Virus record (IMG/VR): IMGVR_UViG_2534681662_000015
Length of the DNA stretch: 25,154 nucleotides
Origin: a virus
Taxonomy: Duplodnaviria > Heunggongvirae > Uroviricota > Caudoviricetes
Direction: 5' to 3' (one strand)
Part shown: positions 1,285-21,447 of the stretch, in pieces
Layout of the letters: every line of letters begins with the position of its first letter
Position numbering within the stretch: position 1 is the first letter of the stretch
Notes under the pieces: generated by a model
The model's input: the letters and a program-made list of their open reading frames with translations, nothing else
Database searches by the model: none
Told to the model about the DNA's origin: nothing
Position numbers and translations under genes: made by a program

Positions 1285-1330
1285 AGGTTGCTCCGGGCTA
1301 TGAAATAGAAAAATGAATCCGTTGAAGCCT

Positions 1331-1345
1331 GCTTTTTTATACTAA
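1331..1345. other. attL core (lambda O region GCTTTTTTATACTAA); the P' arm with Int arm-type/IHF sites follows to ~1420
   Basis: Exact 15-bp lambda att core read directly; the left side matches the attB B arm (…TGAAGCCT), the right side matches the lambda P' arm (GTTGGCATTATAAAAAAGCATTGCTTATCAATTTGTTGCAACGAACAGGTCACTATCAGTCAAAATAAAATCATT). Confidence 0.85.
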
Positions 1346-1418
1346 GTTGGCATTATAAAAAAGCATTGCTTATCAATTTGTTGCAACGAACAGGTCACTA
1401 TCAGTCAAAATAAAATCA

Positions 1419-2489
1419 TTATTTGATTTCAATTTTGTCCCACTCCCTGCCTCTGTCATCACGATACTGTGATGCCATGGTGTCCGACTTATGCCCGAGA
1501 AGATGTTGAGCAAACTTATCGCTTATCTGCTTCTCATAGAGTCTTGCAGACAAACTGCGCAACTCGTGAAAGGTAGGCGGATCCCCTTCGAAGGAAAGAC
1601 CTGATGCTTTTCGTGCGCGCATAAAATACCTTGATACTGTGCCGGATGAAAGCGGTTCGCGACGAGTAGATGCAATTATGGTTTCTCCGCCAAGAATCTC
1701 TTTGCATTTATCAAGTGTTTCCTTCATTGATATTCCGAGAGCATCAACATGCAATGCTGTTGGGATGGCAATTTTTACGCCTGTTTTGCTTTGCTCGACA
1801 TAAAGATATCCATCTACGATATCAGACCACTTCATTTCGCATAAATCACCAACTCGTTGCCCGGTAACAACAGCCAGTTCCATTGCAAGTCTGAGCCAAC
1901 ATGGTGATGATTCTGCTGCTTGATAAATTTTCAGGTATTCGTCAGCCGTAAGTCTTGATCTCCTTACCTCTGATTTTGCTGCGCGAGTGGCAGCGACAGG
2001 GTTTGTTGTTATATGGCCTTCAGCTATTGCCTCTCGGAATGCATCGCTCAGTGTTGATCTGATTAACTTGGCTGACGCCGCCTTGCCCTCGTCTATGTAT
2101 CCATTGAGCATTGCCGCAATTTCTTTTGTGGTGATGTCTTCAAGTGGAGCATCAGGCAGACCCCTCCTTATTGCTTTAATTTTGCTCATGTAATTTATGA
2201 GTGTCTTCTGCTTGATTCCTCTGCTGGCCAGGATTTTTTCGTAGCGATCAAGCCATGAATGTAACGTAACGGAATTATCACTGTTGATTCTCGCTGTCAG
2301 AGGCTTGGGTTTGTGTCCTGAAAATAACTCAATGTTGGCCTGTATGGCTTCAGTGATTGCGATTCGCCTGTCTCTGCCTAATCCAAACTCTTTACCCGTC
2401 CTTGGGTCCCTGTAGCAGTAATATCCATTGTTTCTTATATAAAGGTTAGGGGGTAAATCCCGGCGCTCATGACTTCGCCTTCTTCCCAT
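1419..2489 (-). CDS. int: Tyrosine integrase, lambda Int
   Basis: 356-aa ORF; sequence recognised as lambda Int (MGRRRSHERRDLPPNLYIRNNGYYCYRDPRTGKEF…); adjacent to attL and overlapping xis. Confidence 0.95.
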   Translation of the reverse strand: MGRRRSHERRDLPPNLYIRNNGYYCYRDPRTGKEFGLGRDRRIAITEAIQANIELFSGHKPKPLTARINSDNSVTLHSWLDRYEKILASRGIKQKTLINYMSKIKAIRRGLPDAPLEDITTKEIAAMLNGYIDEGKAASAKLIRSTLSDAFREAIAEGHITTNPVAATRAAKSEVRRSRLTADEYLKIYQAAESSPCWLRLAMELAVVTGQRVGDLCEMKWSDIVDGYLYVEQSKTGVKIAIPTALHVDALGISMKETLDKCKEILGGETIIASTRREPLSSGTVSRYFMRARKASGLSFEGDPPTFHELRSLSARLYEKQISDKFAQHLLGHKSDTMASQYRDDRGREWDKIEIK

Positions 2490-2685
2490 TTCTGATCCTC
2501 TTCAAAAGGCTACCTGTTACTGGTCGATTTAAGTCAACCTTTACCGCTGATTCGTGGAACAGATACTCTCTTCCATCCTTAACCGGAGGAGGGAATATCC
2601 TGCACTCGCGTACCCATCGACGAACTGTTTCAAGGCTTCTTGGGCGTCGCTGGCGTGCGTTCCACTCCTGAAGTGTCAAGTACAT
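2467..2685 (-). CDS. xis: Excisionase, lambda Xis
   Basis: 72-aa ORF MYLTLQEWNARQRRPRSLETVRRWVRECRIFPPP…, recognised as lambda Xis; 23-nt overlap with the int start. Confidence 0.95.
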   Translation of the reverse strand: MYLTLQEWNARQRRPRSLETVRRWVRECRIFPPPVKDGREYLFHESAVKVDLNRPVTGSLLKRIRNGKKAKS

Positions 2686-4220: not shown

Positions 4221-4246
4221 TAATAAAAAAGGAGCCTGTAGCTCCC
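4221..4246 (-). terminator. Putative intrinsic terminator (minus strand) between the orf61-like gene and the TraR-like gene
   Basis: Minus-strand reading GGGAGC-uacag-GCUCCU followed by UUUUUUAUUAUU. Confidence 0.45.
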
Positions 4247-4267
4247 TGATGATTTTGCTTTTCATGT

Positions 4268-6667: not shown

Positions 6668-6743
6668 GGCTGAACTCCTGAAAATGGCTGTGAAAATATC
6701 GCCCGCGAAATGCCAGGCTGATTAGGAAAACAGGAAAGGGGGG

Positions 6744-7034
6744 TTAGTGATTCAGGCCGTTACCGCGTCCGTCGAGAAAAACTTCCACGAGCAAATCACG
6801 GGTATAAGTGCGCTCGATGCCGCGATGCAGATAAAGCCGTCCGCGTAAATTAGCTGATGCAGTCCAGGTACCATCTTTGTGTTTGACCAGCATTCCTGGC
6901 ATGACCGCACCTCGATTAACGGTCTGCGTTCCGTAATGTTGATGAACCATAAAAACTCCTGCCCGTAAGCTGGGCTGCTGAACATATAAAGACTTCTGCG
7001 CGTATTCAGGCGGTGGATGGCCGCCGGTTGTCAT
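6744..7034 (-). CDS. Hypothetical early-left protein (96 aa); first gene downstream of the PL region
   Basis: ORF with an in-frame stop 8 codons upstream of its ATG and a GAGG SD; occupies the place where lambda has kil/cIII/ssb/ral/sieB/N but resembles none that I recognise; not Arg-rich like N. Confidence 0.5.
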   Translation of the reverse strand: MTTGGHPPPEYAQKSLYVQQPSLRAGVFMVHQHYGTQTVNRGAVMPGMLVKHKDGTWTASANLRGRLYLHRGIERTYTRDLLVEVFLDGRGNGLNH

Positions 7035-7171
7035 AACTAAGCCGCCTCGTTGAAGCGACTAAGGTATGAAATGTTGAGTTAATTTCAGCTGGTCACACCG
7101 ACGTTCACGCGTCCGTTTCACCCCTCGCACTCCCCGAAGCCTGCTGAAATTCAAACTGCGGATCTAAGCGG

Positions 7172-7222
7172 TCATCGCAACGGTGAATCAGGTAGTTGCC
7201 GTATCGTTGTGTTGTTGCGATG
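7172..7222 (-). promoter_or_regulatory. Large palindrome in the predicted PL leader (candidate RNA structure, terminator or protein-binding site)
   Basis: Perfect 10-bp inverted repeat TCATCGCAAC … GTTGCGATGA flanking 31 bp with further internal complementarity (CAACGG/CGTTG); lies immediately downstream of the predicted PL -10. Confidence 0.4.
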
Positions 7223-7300
7223 AACTTATTTAAAACTATAGTTGTTTTATCGTCAACAACAAAAGTTGTTTTATTGGTTGTTTTAGATATAACTGGTTGT
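7222..7300 (-). promoter_or_regulatory. Putative PL promoter with OL operator array
   Basis: Minus-strand TTGACG-17bp-TTAAAT, embedded in repeated GTTGTT/AACAAC half-sites (~7241, 7255, 7265, 7277, 7295); the module TTGACGATAAAACAACTATAGTTTTAAAT is near-identical to the PR module at 8284-8312. Confidence 0.5.
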
Positions 7301-7397
7301 ATTTAGGATGGATTTATTTTGTGACTTGAATCGCATAGCGATAACTGAAGCGAGGTTATGGTGGTTTTTTTAACGGTGTGTGTGATGAGGGGAGGGC

Positions 7398-7424
7398 AAA
7401 AGAAAACCCGGCACGGTGACCGGG
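7398..7424 (-). terminator. Putative terminator downstream of the repressor gene
   Basis: CCCGG-N8-CCGGG hairpin followed on the minus strand by TTTTCTTTT; about 120 bp after the cI-like stop. Confidence 0.35.
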
Positions 7425-7545
7425 ATTCTTACGCCGTTAGGTAAAGATATTATTGCGGTGGCTTAATATTACTACCTAGAGCAAAGATAGGAATTAGTTC
7501 TTTACTGAATGAGCACAATGCCCAGTTGATAATTTTTAATTGGTA

Positions 7546-8235
7546 CTACCCATGCTTCCTATATGTCTGCGGCATGCTCCCAATAACCTTACCGAAGATG
7601 AACACCCGGTTCATCTCGTCTTTCTCGATCGGGTCCCACGGTGAGTAGCTTTTGTTATCAGAGATGACCAGCAGCTTATTCTTCATCATTTGCAGGCGCT
7701 TTACATGGGCTGTGTCGTCGTACAGAAACGCATAGATACCATCACCGTCGAAAGATTTAACTGTGATATCAACGAACAGCAGATCACCTGGTTCGATCGT
7801 TCCTGACATGCTGTCACCACGCACGTTAATGATGCGGATATTTTCCGCCTTCCTACCATCGAACATGTGACGAGCATCGTCAAACGAGTACTCAACCGAG
7901 CGTAGAACTTCTACAAACTCACGGTTGATGACTCCCGGCCCAGCACTGACTTCTATATCAAGAACGTCAATCTTGAAGTATTTGGAATGGCTGACAGTTG
8001 ATTGTATTGGTTGCACTGTACTGTCTGACATATTTCCAACGCCAGAAGATAACCATTCTGCGCGCACACCCAAAGCGTTCGCGATCTCCACGATTTTAGT
8101 TGTTTGATTAGCTTTCCCTGTTTCGATTTTCTGAATAGCAGCCTGGCTAACCCCGACCAAATCCCCAAGCGCCTTTTGTGTAAGGCCTCGCGCTAATCTG
8201 GCTTCTTTAAGTCTTTCTGAGAGTGTTGTTTTCAT
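7546..8235 (-). CDS. CI-like prophage repressor (N-terminal XRE-type HTH, C-terminal LexA/S24 autopeptidase domain); non-lambda immunity
   Basis: HTH segment LTQKALGDLVGVSQAAIQKIETGK; S24 signatures GDSM (Ser nucleophile) and HVKRLQ (Lys). Start taken at MKTTLSERL… (ATG 8233-8235); the ORF stays open to an ATG at 8301 that lies inside the operator palindrome. Confidence 0.85.
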   Translation of the reverse strand: MKTTLSERLKEARLARGLTQKALGDLVGVSQAAIQKIETGKANQTTKIVEIANALGVRAEWLSSGVGNMSDSTVQPIQSTVSHSKYFKIDVLDIEVSAGPGVINREFVEVLRSVEYSFDDARHMFDGRKAENIRIINVRGDSMSGTIEPGDLLFVDITVKSFDGDGIYAFLYDDTAHVKRLQMMKNKLLVISDNKSYSPWDPIEKDEMNRVFIFGKVIGSMPQTYRKHG

Positions 8236-8339
8236 AGTCCAAATGTACAACCAAGGTTTTATTCCATCAAACGAAAATGGTTGTTGACTAAAAACAACCA
8301 TAGTTTTAATCTTGATTCAAATTAACCACGGAGGTTGTT
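8236..8339 (+). promoter_or_regulatory. OR operator / PR (and divergent PRM) region
   Basis: Palindrome ATGGTTGTT-N7-AACAACCAT (8277-8301) overlapping TTGACT (8284-8289) with TAATCT 17 bp downstream; GGAGG SD precedes the cro-like ATG at 8340. Confidence 0.6.
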
Positions 8340-8570
8340 ATGAACCCAGCTATCAAAACAGCGATCAATATCGTTGGTTCACAAAAGAAACTGGGCGCTG
8401 CTTGCGAAGTTTCACAGCAGGCCGTCTATAAGTGGCTTCACAACAAAGCAAAGGTATCCCCTGAACATGTCGGCAGCATTGTTACGGCTACTGGTGGAGT
8501 AGTGAAGGCATACCAGATTCGCCCGGATCTTCCGAAGTTGTTTCCACACACCGAAAAGAACGCAGCTTAA
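8340..8570 (+). CDS. Cro-like HTH protein (YdaS/DUF1019-type Cro analog)
   Basis: 76-aa ORF divergent from the repressor, HTH-like segment QKKLGAACEVSQQAVYKWLHNK; strong GGAGG SD. Confidence 0.75.
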   Translation: MNPAIKTAINIVGSQKKLGAACEVSQQAVYKWLHNKAKVSPEHVGSIVTATGGVVKAYQIRPDLPKLFPHTEKNAA

Positions 8571-8582
8571 ATTTCCATTTCA

Positions 8583-8596
8583 CGCTCTTTAACAAT
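8583..8596 (+). promoter_or_regulatory. boxA-like antitermination element (rrn-type boxA) at the nutR position
   Basis: CGCTCTTTAACAAT matches the rRNA-operon boxA consensus (TGCTCTTTAACAA) at 12 of 13 positions and sits 13 nt after the cro-like stop; no boxB-like hairpin is evident next to it. Confidence 0.5.
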
Positions 8597-11192: not shown

Positions 11193-11259
11193 TGAAACAG
11201 GTGAGTTGAGTTCAAACTGTAGTACAATTCTCTCCAGTTTGAACAGGAAAGAATATGCT

Positions 11260-11847: not shown

Positions 11848-13374
11848 ATGAAAAAAGCCATAGCATATATGCGATTTTCATCACCAGGTCAGATGTCTGG
11901 TGATTCATTAAACCGCCAGAGAAGGCTTATTACTGAATGGCTAAAGGTAAATAGTGATTATTACCTTGATACCGTAACGTATGAAGATTTGGGGTTAAGC
12001 GCATTCAATGGAAAGCATGCACAATCAGGAGCTTTTTCGGAATTTTTAGATGCTATAGAACATGGTTATATATTGCCAGGGACTACATTGTTAGTTGAAA
12101 GTCTGGACAGACTTTCAAGAGAAAAAGTCGGTGAAGCGATTGAGCGTCTGAAATTGATTTTGAATCACGGTATTGATGTTATAACTCTTTGCGATAATAC
12201 AGTCTATAATATTGACTCATTGAATGAGCCATATTCATTAATAAAAGCCATACTTATAGCACAAAGGGCAAATGAAGAAAGCGAGATAAAGTCAAGTCGG
12301 GTTAAATTATCATGGAAGAAAAAACGGCAGGATGCACTGGAGTCAGGCACGATTATGACGGCGTCTTGTCCGAGATGGCTCTCATTGGATGACAAAAGAA
12401 CGGCTTTTGTTCCAGACCCCGACAGGGTGAAAACTATTGAGCTAATTTTTAAACTCAGGATGGAAAGGCGCTCATTGAATGCAATAGCCAAGTATTTAAA
12501 TGATCATGCTGTAAAGAATTTCTCAGGAAAAGAAAGTGCATGGGGACCTTCTGTAATTGAAAAATTATTAGCGAATAAAGCTCTGATAGGTATATGCGTA
12601 CCTTCATATCGTGCAAGAGGTAAAGGAATAAGTGAAATCGCTGGCTATTATCCCAGAGTCATATCAGATGATTTGTTTTACGCTGTGCAGGAAATTCGGT
12701 TGGCACCTTTTGGTATTAGCAATAGTAGCAAAAATCCTATGTTGATAAATCTACTTCGAACAGTTATGAAGTGCGAGGCTTGTGGTAATACCATGATTGT
12801 TCATGCGGTATCTGGAAGTTTGCATGGCTATTATGTTTGTCCGATGAGAAGACTGCATCGATGTGACAGGCCATCAATAAAGAGAGATTTGGTTGATTAT
12901 AATATCATTAATGAGTTGCTTTTTAATTGTAGTAAAATCCAACCAGTTGAAAACAAGAAAGATGCTAATGAAACTTTAGAGTTGAAAATTATTGAGCTCC
13001 AGATAAAAATTAATAATTTAATTGCTGCATTATCTGTTGCGCCTGAAGTTACCGCTATAGCAGAAAAAATCAGAGTATTAGATAAGGAATTACGAAGGGC
13101 TTCTGTATCATTAAAAACTTTGAAGAGTAAAGCGGTGAGTTCACTTGGTGATTTTCATGCTATTGACTTAACCAGTAAAAATGGGCGAGAGCTATGTCGT
13201 ACACTTGCCTATAAAACATTCGAAAAAATCATAATCAATACAGATAATAAAACCTGTGATATCTATTTTATGAATGGCATTGTTTTTAAACACTATCCTT
13301 TAATGAAAACAATATCTGCCCAGCAGGCGATAAGTACTCTCAAATATATGGTTGATGGTGAGGTTTATTTTTGA
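11848..13374 (+). CDS. ybcK: Large serine recombinase (resolvase/invertase catalytic domain plus recombinase and zinc-ribbon domains), DLP12 YbcK-like
   Basis: 508-aa ORF; N-terminal catalytic motifs AYMRFSSPGQ (Ser nucleophile) and ESLDRLSR; Cys cluster CEACGNTMIVHAVSGSLHGYYVCPMRRLHRCD; AT-rich gene with its own upstream AT-rich promoter region. Confidence 0.85.
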   Translation: MKKAIAYMRFSSPGQMSGDSLNRQRRLITEWLKVNSDYYLDTVTYEDLGLSAFNGKHAQSGAFSEFLDAIEHGYILPGTTLLVESLDRLSREKVGEAIERLKLILNHGIDVITLCDNTVYNIDSLNEPYSLIKAILIAQRANEESEIKSSRVKLSWKKKRQDALESGTIMTASCPRWLSLDDKRTAFVPDPDRVKTIELIFKLRMERRSLNAIAKYLNDHAVKNFSGKESAWGPSVIEKLLANKALIGICVPSYRARGKGISEIAGYYPRVISDDLFYAVQEIRLAPFGISNSSKNPMLINLLRTVMKCEACGNTMIVHAVSGSLHGYYVCPMRRLHRCDRPSIKRDLVDYNIINELLFNCSKIQPVENKKDANETLELKIIELQIKINNLIAALSVAPEVTAIAEKIRVLDKELRRASVSLKTLKSKAVSSLGDFHAIDLTSKNGRELCRTLAYKTFEKIIINTDNKTCDIYFMNGIVFKHYPLMKTISAQQAISTLKYMVDGEVYF

Positions 13375-13827: not shown

Positions 13828-13853
13828 CTTCCGTCATTCTGCGATGACGGAAG
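13828..13853 (+). other. Perfect 10-bp stem-loop (CTTCCGTCAT-tctgcg-ATGACGGAAG)
   Basis: Read directly; 19 bp after the stop of the 107-aa ORF; no T-run. Confidence 0.5.
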
Positions 13854-14806: not shown

Positions 14807-14839
14807 AAGTCACCGGAGTTTGAACTCCTCCGGTGACTT
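14807..14839 (+). other. Strong stem-loop (12-bp perfect stem AAGTCACCGGAG / CTCCGGTGACTT, 9-nt loop) at the boundary between the AT-rich cargo and ybcN
   Basis: Read directly; no flanking T-run on either strand, so it may be a terminator-like structure, an RNA stability element or an insertion scar. Confidence 0.5.
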
Positions 14840-21270: not shown

Positions 21271-21447
21271 CGCGGGTTTTCGCTATTTATGAAAAATTTC
21301 CGGTTTAAGGCGTTTCCGTTCTTCTTCGTCATAACTTAATGTTTTTATTTAAAATACCCTCTGAAAAGAAAGGAAACGACAGGTGCTGAAAGCGAGCTTT
21401 TTGGCCTCTGTCGTTTCCTTTCTCTGTTTTTGTCCGTGGAGTGAACA

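Follow-up and report, generated by a model that had tools for sequence, protein, structure and literature searches.

A palindrome at the predicted start of the early-left transcript of an N-less lambdoid prophage, a candidate 5'-terminal RNA stem-loop

What is the palindrome that lies directly downstream of the early-left promoter (PL) of an N-less lambdoid prophage, in the place where lambda carries nutL and HK022 carries putL? We studied this question in the IMG/VR record IMGVR_UViG_2534681662_000015, a stretch of 25,154 nucleotides referred to as the window throughout. The window is an intact lambdoid prophage, DLP12/Rac-like and without an N gene, and is 99.5-100% identical to Escherichia phage PhiR34_1. 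Its leftward genes and sites run in the order cI (S24/HTH, 7546 to ~8232), the cI terminator (7424-7407), OL/PL, the leader, kil, gam, bet, exo and int, and the rightward genes are cro (YdaS family, 8340-8570), a YdaT/cII-like gene, O, P, ren, emrE, ybcK-ybcO, rusA, Q and the lysis genes. The annotation of PhiR34_1 has no N gene, and none was found when unassigned ORFs of the left operon were scanned with Pfam and PHROG. The N gene is missing from many lambdoid phages and prophages, and how antitermination works in the N-less ones is treated as an open question (PMC12315714). A conserved RNA at the nutL/putL position in a phage with neither N nor put is a testable candidate for the missing early-control element. 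The leader also lies upstream of a toxic cell-division inhibitor, kil, and hence bears on prophage induction and on the killing of the host when Rho or repressor control fails. It is widespread: of 5,426 complete E. coli genomes, 2,223 (about 40%) carry it. In the RefSeq annotation of relatives kil starts at ATG 6950 behind a GGAG Shine-Dalgarno sequence, giving a leader of ~270 nt, and an in-frame upstream ATG at 7034 would yield a 96-aa product. The initial annotation of this DNA had put the palindrome ~140 bp upstream of the first leftward gene, which is correct for ATG 7034 but not for the start of kil.

The repeat is real and by itself not beyond chance, because 10-bp repeats are common in shuffled sequences and the folding energy is weak. 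The repeat finder reports two perfectly complementary arms of 10 nt, 7172-7181 (TCATCGCAAC) and 7214-7223 (GTTGCGATGA), separated by 32 nt, so that the whole palindrome measures 52 bp (7172-7223); the 51 bp and 31-nt spacer described initially had the end coordinate and the spacer each off by one. The internal CAACG/CGTTG complementarity noticed at the same time is present, as an alternative register that does not extend the stem. The RNA-sense strand has four copies of CAAC, any of which can pair with the only GUUG. Dinucleotide shuffling of the window yields a perfect 10-bp inverted repeat (spacer 3-40 nt) in 50% of cases, with a mean of 0.85 seeds, and the window itself holds seven such loci. 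The palindrome with its flanks folds at -13.1 kcal/mol (z = -2.06), and the RNA taken from the predicted start at -9.4 kcal/mol (z = -0.41), which is thermodynamically ordinary. Structure prediction had been proposed as a check on the element; it does give a fold for the leader, and the energy of the palindrome counted from the predicted start is unremarkable. The minimum-free-energy fold of the leader contains the second, larger hairpin listed in Table 1, which surrounds a G-rich segment. The significance of the palindrome lies in its position and in the comparative data.

Table 1. Features of the PL region in the window (positions are those of the whole stretch).
Feature	Position	Strand	Basis and remarks
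Predicted PL -35 hexamer, TTGACG	7251-7256	-	Read from the sequence; PL closely like PR
Predicted PL -10 hexamer, TTAAAT (17-nt spacer)	7228-7233	-	Read from the sequence
Predicted PL +1, A	7221	-	Promoter geometry; G in many 4A7-type relatives
OL operator region, repeated AAAACAAC / GTTGTT motifs common to OR (8277-8301)	7234-7293		Repeat finder (D2, I1, I2, I6)
Hairpin 5' arm, RNA sense UCAUCGCAAC	7214-7223	-	Repeat finder (I8), sequence
CA-rich 32-nt loop, AACACAACGAUACGGCAACUACCUGAUUCACC	7182-7213	-	Variation among 59 haplotypes; alignment to class F
Hairpin 3' arm, RNA sense GUUGCGAUGA	7172-7181	-	Repeat finder; kept in three immunity types including O55:H7
Remaining untranslated PL leader	6951-7171	-	Contains GACCGCUUAGAUCCGCAGUUUGAAUUUCAGCAGGCU, alignable to the core that other PL leaders conserve
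Second, larger leader hairpin, AAUUUCAGCAGG / CCAGCUGAAAUU, 12-nt arms, 92% complementary	7081-7151	-	Repeat finder (I5)
kil (FtsZ-inhibitor family), first leftward gene	6744-6950	-	Annotation in relatives; PHROG 294, Kil, E = 1e-38

The position of the palindrome relative to the promoter suggests that it forms the very 5' end of the PL transcript. PL (GTTGTTGACGATAAAACAACTATAGTTTTAA) closely matches PR upstream of cro (GTTGTTGACTAAAAACAACCATAGTTTTAA, 8281-8310), the two showing the near-identical pattern GTTGTTGAC(G/T)A…AAAACAAC(T/C)ATAGTTTTAA. From the promoter geometry we infer a start at 7221, and the leftward RNA should then begin with AUCGCAAC…. The geometry is consistent in three heteroimmune types, i.e. 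those of the window, 4A7 and O55:H7: in each of them exactly 6 nt separate the end of the PL -10 hexamer from the base aligned with 7221, the hexamer being TATTAT in 4A7 and TATTGT in O55:H7, whose operators and promoters are unrelated to those of the window. BLAST matches of the window type to the 4A7 type end at 7220/7221 (query position 191/192), and the sequence from 7221 leftward is conserved across these two immunity types. The conserved module is thus predicted to begin at the first transcribed base. With the start at 7221 the transcribed part of the 5' arm would be AUCGCAAC only (7221-7214), and the palindrome would therefore be an 8-bp stem flush with the 5' end around a 32-nt loop. 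The initial annotation had placed the element just downstream of the PL -10, a position that our data bear out and sharpen, as the predicted start A7221 lies inside the right-hand arm. An alternative -10 hexamer, TTTAAA, can be read at 7229-7234.

The nutL or putL interpretation offered initially is partly supported, being right about the place and the strand but wrong about the family. Like lambda nutL, the palindrome precedes the first leftward gene within the PL leader; the differences are that the window's leader has neither boxA nor a boxB pentaloop hairpin and that no N-like protein is found in the left-operon ORFs scanned. Within one mismatch there is no boxA (YGCUCUUUA-like) on the minus strand in 6950-7223, and the leader fold contains no boxB-type hairpin (about 5-bp stem with a GNRA-like pentaloop); the stem of the palindrome closes 32 nt. 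Perfect boxA matches occur in the window only at 8583 and 19205. The first of them (CGCTCTTTAACAA, 8583-8595) directly follows cro, which is the nutR position, and is the only boxA in the early region. HK022 encodes its putL RNA immediately after PL, and the pairing in it begins at about +3 (PMC9378689). The palindrome resembles it as a candidate RNA element encoded directly 3' of PL, with pairing predicted within the first few nucleotides, in a phage without N, but has no similarity to it in sequence or structure: put consists of two bulged stems in ~70 nt and the palindrome of one stem with a large loop, and HK022 has both putL and putR whereas the window element has no partner in the PR operon. 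A covariance model of put (R1), based on eight put RNAs (putL/putR from HK022, CobraSix, S9-5, HK639 and phiEt88) and a consensus of two stems with conserved CGAACGGC…GUCGG…GGCG…CAAU, scores 95.1 bits for HK022 putL and 75.9 bits for HK022 putR. Its best matches in the window have E-values of at least 3, lie in unrelated places and leave none in 7035-7223. No second, PR-side copy of the leader is found in the window or in 40 related loci.

Other known element types did not match the palindrome either. It is not called as an intrinsic terminator in our terminator scan, its 3' flank being GACCGCUUAG with no U-tract, and the terminator lacking a U-tract that had been considered at first does not fit a stem that starts at +1 and has a 32-nt loop. 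Rfam gives no match at the gathering threshold in the whole window, and E-value scans of 6700-7560 and of the related loci return chance-level miRNA and CRISPR matches, with sub-threshold isrB-like matches elsewhere. Literature searches with its motif strings and on how N-less lambdoids antiterminate gave no description of the element. We also considered, and rejected, a rightward antisense RNA with its end at the palindrome, as 7035-7170 has no conserved rightward promoter and varies between relatives. The Pas sRNA, described in a preprint, concerns the late region and is unrelated to the palindrome.

Variation within E. coli fits a constraint on the stem. We compared 59 leader haplotypes, collected from 80 IMG/VR loci with an identical Kil and from phage and genome loci. 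The arms vary at three positions only: +1, where the A/G polymorphism keeps the pairing with U (A-U or G.U), and 7216 and 7179, where singletons each break a pair, the latter being the one variant of the 3' arm. No common variant in the arms breaks a pair. In the loop 8 of the 32 sites are variable, several of them commonly, and all lie in 7198-7182 except one at 7213, with the segment 7212-7199 invariant. The difference between arms and loop in the number of variable sites is not statistically significant. The conservation and covariation analysis that had been proposed for related prophages therefore has a divided outcome: the element is conserved with nearly invariant arms, but the variation is not decisive and covariation cannot be read within E. 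coli because the copies are 95-100% identical. The O55:H7 type has a recombination junction inside the loop, at 7187, which replaces the 5' arm and half of the loop. The replacement 5' arm (AUUGCAUC) can still pair with the retained 3' arm at 7 of 8 positions, including one wobble; the predicted fold of the O55:H7 leader does not use this pairing.

Hairpins close to the transcription start recur in PL leaders of other genera. We collected ~110 distinct PL leaders through relatives of Kil in other genera and by scanning IMG/VR with the conserved leader hairpin HP2 (GTTCCGC-N5-7-GGCGACAAGG). They have in common a core, …UAA(C)GCGCAG.AGGUU…AACGUUC-[CGCCA-GCC-UGGCG]-ACAAGG, and differ in their 5' modules, by which we sorted them into classes A to F. 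HP2 differs between variants by a 1-nt indel and is therefore not coding. Class A leaders, found in Silvania, Enterobacter, Kluyvera and many IMG/VR contigs, carry AUCGACAAC, a loop of 9-10 nt and GUUGUC. Their hairpin and that of the window have the same CAAC/GUUG core, and beyond this core both strands differ while the complementarity is kept. Outside the hairpin the leaders of the distant genera are ~55-60% identical to that of the window by our own estimate. Classes C, D and E have other short hairpins near the predicted +1 with unrelated stem sequences, and class B has almost no 5' hairpin. Thus a hairpin close to +1 recurs in classes A and E, and possibly also in C and D, whose start is placed with less certainty. 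The PL RNA of lambda can itself form such a hairpin, UCAG/CUGA at +2. MAFFT alignment across the classes wrongly placed the 3' arm of the window onto HP2, and this alignment was excluded from the pair counts.

The remaining class of these PL leaders, class F, carries a real, covarying structure just downstream of PL. It is a three-helix domain (P1-P2-P3) of ~60 nt, present without annotation in mEp237, SfV, SfII, ST64B, SPN3UB, mEp460 and others. In an alignment of 36 sequences (A4) 96.7% of the cells are paired in all, compared with 20-45% when the 3' partners are slid, and 48 cells are changed on both sides, compared with 16 +/- 2.7 in shuffles; P1, P3 and HP2 are well supported. P1 is CCACC/GGUGG or GUCAUC/GAUGAC, and P3 alternates among CCGG, CCCGG/CCGGG and CCGAC/GUCGG. 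G.U pairs occur in the P1, P3 and HP2 helices of the family (15 of them in HP2) and only in the PL-sense strand, which argues for an RNA rather than a DNA palindrome. The domain also has strongly conserved unpaired nucleotides, and its P1 sits 11-20 nt from the predicted 5' end, behind an unpaired tail. The start of the lambda PL RNA (AUCAGCAGGACGC) resembles these leaders. The domain is not in Rfam 15, and each of 40 related loci has a single copy, none of them on the PR side. In mEp237 and SfV, the two genomes inspected, PL is not followed by an N gene, and the put model is negative in class A and class F phages including these two. Class F thus appears to be an undescribed covarying leader RNA of lambdoid phages that have neither N nor put.

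The palindrome may be the lengthened P1 helix of a reduced member of this leader family, a relation suggested by one pairwise alignment. In global alignment the window hairpin and a class F domain of the L112 type score 33, compared with 17 +/- 3.8 for shuffles, a value that no shuffle out of 1,000 equalled; adding the downstream core brings the score to 43.5, compared with 24.6 +/- 4.7, and one of 1,000 shuffles reached it. The alignment places UCAUC…GAUGAC of the window onto the GUCAUC/GAUGAC form of P1, and GGCA…GAUUCACCG of the loop region onto the loop and 3' arm of P3. It thus gives the window the closing helix P1 and, behind it, the conserved core …CGCAG…. The window lacks P2 and the 5' strand of P3, and neither a full P3 with its loop GGCAUACGAA nor the HP2 consensus (GUUCCGC…GGCGACAAGG) is recognizable there. 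At the inner five stem positions, 2 of 5 are pairable in class F (GCAGG/GAUGA) and 5 of 5 in the window (GCAAC/GUUGC), and all four substitutions involved, two on each strand, raise the pairing. The class F covariance model (R2) finds class A and B leaders with E-values from 1e-11 to 4e-4, aligning the class A hairpin with P1, but it misses the leader of the window (7.4 bits, E = 2.8). The window element itself seems to be a modest 5' hairpin, and its interest lies in the covarying leader RNA to which it points.

We propose with moderate confidence that the palindrome acts in cis as the 5'-terminal stem-loop of the PL mRNA, which would shield or organise the leader. The data favour RNA over DNA as the level at which it works, because the element is predicted to start with the transcript, is common to phages with different repressors, and has related helices that covary and tolerate G.U pairs. 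It would be transcribed as the first ~52 nt of the early-left mRNA, in which AUCGCAAC would pair with GUUGCGAU to give an 8-bp stem flush with +1 around the CA-rich loop. A stem flush with the 5' end of an mRNA blocks the decay pathways that depend on that end, i.e. those through RppH and the 5' sensor of RNase E. With its triphosphorylated 5' end paired and the first 50 nt tied up, the leader of ~270 nt might thus be protected from RppH and RNase E, and the hairpin could also keep the folding of the leader independent of the promoter and immunity module upstream. The expected outcome would be a sustained expression of kil-gam-bet-exo after derepression. In evolution the stem may have been the closing helix P1 of the leader domain of N-less lambdoids, whose inner helices were lost and whose P1 was lengthened in the lineage of the window. 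The hairpin in the 5' UTR of ompA is reportedly a stabilising 5'-terminal stem-loop of this kind in E. coli (Emory, Bouvet and Belasco 1992). The window stem likewise opens a long untranslated leader, 0-3 nt from its predicted 5' end, but differs in its unusually large loop and in having relatives within the same RNA family with unpaired 5' tails. The family as a whole cannot have 5'-end protection as its function, because class F has such a tail of 11-20 nt and class B almost no hairpin. For the form found in the window a 5'-terminal stem-loop nevertheless seems to be the reading that takes the fewest assumptions. A hairpin that merely protects the 5' end would be an ordinary result, yet one that corrects the nutL/putL reading.

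A possible but doubtful alternative is that the palindrome is what remains of a new antiterminator or anti-Rho RNA, made of P1-P2-P3 and HP2 and replacing N/nut and put. The window would then hold the minimal surviving core of the undescribed family, a P1 that closes a three-way junction and is followed by the conserved hairpin, and would act on RNA polymerase or Rho so that transcription from PL passes the leader and the terminators beyond it. The absence of N and put from the window phage, the absence of put from SfV, mEp237 and other carriers, and the nutL/putL position of the domain are all consistent with this role. The conserved unpaired nucleotides of class F suggest a specific ligand, either RNA polymerase or another protein, and there are terminators to be overcome: a good intrinsic terminator lies inside the PL operon of the window at 4247-4229, and SfV has an annotated one after its first PL gene. 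Rho could be involved as well, since the leader has C-rich, G-poor patches at +1-40 (C/G ratio 2.6 over these 40 nt) and +131-170 that resemble its loading (rut) sites. In the Rac prophage kilR is reportedly silenced by Rho and NusG (Cardinale 2008). Unlike nut and put, however, the domain exists in a single copy per locus with none facing the PR operon, the window form lacks P2, P3 and the HP2 consensus, so that a specific binding surface has probably gone, and class A leaders retain just a hairpin with a 9-nt loop. The likeness of class F to the window is its position after PL and the alignment to P1, to the loop and 3' arm of P3 and to the downstream core; the missing helices and the failure of the family model set the two apart.

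It is rather improbable that the palindrome is a functionless, decayed remnant of the class F domain whose complementarity persists from the recent divergence of E. coli prophages. Such decay could explain the loss of P2 and P3, the ordinary folding energy and the exchange of the 5' arm with half of the loop in the O55:H7 type; inverted repeats of this length are not rare by chance, and conservation among E. coli copies that are 95-100% identical says little. It does not explain why all four stem substitutions between class F and the window increase the pairing, from 2/5 to 5/5, why distant genera, in which the leader has otherwise come down to an estimated ~55-60% identity, keep a hairpin with the CAAC/GUUG core, or why the replaced 5' arm of O55:H7 is still 7/8 complementary.

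We consider it unlikely, and slightly more so than the remnant, that the hairpin is one half of a leader switch, whose 3' arm would alternatively pair downstream and alter the access of ribosomes to kil or to ATG 7034. In class A the 3' arm extended by AGG (GUUGUCAGG) has CCUGGCGAC of HP2 as an alternative partner, and the structure predicted to have the lowest free energy is the one with this pairing (-20.8 kcal/mol, z = -2.3). Apart from a 2-nt bulge, GUUGCGAU of the window is complementary to GUCGCUUCAAC (7059-7049), which otherwise pairs with the GAGG upstream of ATG 7034, and the toxicity of Kil makes a tight control plausible. On the other hand both strands of the alternative helix are invariant in our data, the helix is not conserved in class F, and its window counterpart is a weak pairing, spotted by eye, with no known trigger.

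A role of the palindrome as DNA is very unlikely. Two half-sites 42 bp apart from centre to centre would have to bind a host protein or a conserved phage protein, other than the immunity repressor, that blocks or modulates PL at the start site, and the perfection of the repeat and the overlap of its right arm with +1 would suit such a site. The 32-bp gap is atypical for a dimer site, the A/G polymorphism at +1 and the tolerance of G.U in the related helices would break a DNA palindrome, and we found no candidate protein or known motif. Of the protein-binding site that the initial annotation had allowed for, the repressor operator is excluded because heteroimmune phages with different operators carry the same sequence from +1 onward, and nothing supports another DNA-binding protein.

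That the palindrome is a true nutL or put after all, serving an unrecognised N-like protein or as a divergent put RNA, is hardly credible and largely refuted: its position in the leader fits and the perfect boxA after cro implies that the phage may use Nus factors, but the leader has no boxA or boxB, no N was found in the ORFs scanned, the put model is negative and the window has no second leader copy.

A covarying structured RNA domain, which we call class F, lies directly 3' of PL in lambdoid phages that lack both N and put, the antitermination RNA of HK022. Its helices P1, P2 and P3 form a three-way junction that has the conserved sequences CACGAAGUAGC and GGCAUACGAA; the HP2 hairpin comes next. 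Besides the four loci listed in the table, which include mEp237 and SfV, the domain was found in about 50 more IMG/VR loci. It has no entry in Rfam 15, and the GenBank records carry no annotation for it.

Class A leaders, which have a short 5' hairpin, could fold in another way. The 3' arm of the 5' hairpin together with the following AGG (GUUGUCAGG) is complementary to CCUGGCGAC in the HP2 hairpin. Structure prediction gives this long-range pairing as the fold of minimum free energy (-20.8 kcal/mol, z = -2.3), which suggests that these leaders may adopt two mutually exclusive conformations.

The PL leader of lambda itself (35300-35680, minus strand) resembles class F at two places: its RNA starts with AUCAGCAGGACGCAC, similar to CAUCGAGGCAGGACGCCCAC of class F, and the N leader has GAUACGAAAC, like the class F P3 loop. 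These sequence likenesses hint at a common ancestry of the PL leaders with and without nutL.

Coordinates of the features in the window and in the compared phage and prophage loci
Feature	Locus	Position	Strand	Remarks
Class F domain	L103	5621-5765	-	
Class F domain	L112	1641-1785	-	
Class F domain	L223 (mEp237)	2488-2612		
Class F domain	L224 (SfV)	2478-2560		
Class A leader with 3' arm/HP2 complementarity	L009	1422-1493		other class A loci: L010, L012, L110-L221
Second, larger leader hairpin	window	7081-7151	-	12-nt arms AAUUUCAGCAGG/CCAGCUGAAAUU, 92% complementary
Hexamer AACGAT	window	7203-7208	-	PL RNA +14 to +19 (predicted start), invariant loop half
ATG in frame with kil	window	7034	-	extension 6951-7034
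boxA CGCTCTTTAACAA, perfect	window	8583-8595	+	
Intrinsic terminator	window	4229-4247	-	AGGGAGC-TAC-AGGCTCCTT, then TTTTATTATT
OL/PL-cI interval	window	7300-7545		
OL/PL-cI interval	L002	5200-6890		
OL/PL-cI interval	L004	3160-5220		
isrB-like sub-threshold match	L008	1882-1978	-	
isrB-like sub-threshold match	L009	1883-1977	-	
isrB-like sub-threshold match	L103	5039-5135	+	
isrB-like sub-threshold match	L168	2866-2962	-	
Other inverted repeats	window	1330-1365, 11210-11244, 12095-12118, 13828-13853, 14807-14839, 21367-21423		

The second hairpin in the PL leader of the window encloses a G-rich segment, and the stretches on either side of it (PL RNA +1-40 and +131-170) are rich in C and poor in G. 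The loop of the 5' hairpin carries AACGAT. At lambda PR' this -10-like hexamer brings about promoter-proximal pausing that depends on sigma70; here it might cause an early transcription pause. The hexamer is not conserved in the other leader classes. Further downstream, an ATG in frame with kil, the first gene of the leftward operon, has GAGG 10 nt 5' of it, and a start there would add 28 residues to the product (96 versus 68 aa). At 7%, variation in the extension is as low as in the kil coding sequence, versus 17-25% in the remaining leader; as the compared loci were selected for having an identical Kil, this likeness carries no weight as evidence of coding.

The nutR position is occupied by a boxA, 13 nt 3' of the cro stop codon and identical to the rrn boxA at 12 of 13 positions. 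There is no boxB hairpin after it and no N gene in the phage. Only loci with the window-type immunity module (L001 and L006) have this boxA; the 4A7-type and other relatives lack it. Within the leftward operon we found a convincing intrinsic terminator, 5' of a TraR/DksA-like gene and int. To be expressed, the distal PL genes would depend on read-through or on promoters of their own.

Between OL/PL and the cI 3' end lies a hot spot for cargo genes, which is empty in the window. The 4A7-type phages have an ASCH-domain gene and a hypothetical gene there, the O55:H7 prophage has a SIR2-family gene, and other PhiR phages have GevT/GevA or HipA/HipD. A flank of about 120 bp (7320-7440, with the cI terminator at 7407-7424) is kept across these variants.

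Weak hits to isrB, an sRNA family with a gathering score of 35, were found in four of the compared loci at 26-31 bits (E = 0.01-0.7) and none in the window; those in L008 and L009 are antisense and 3' of kil. The window has six more loci at which the arms of a perfect inverted repeat, 10 bp or longer, lie no more than 40 nt apart; at 21367-21423 the arms are 16 nt long.
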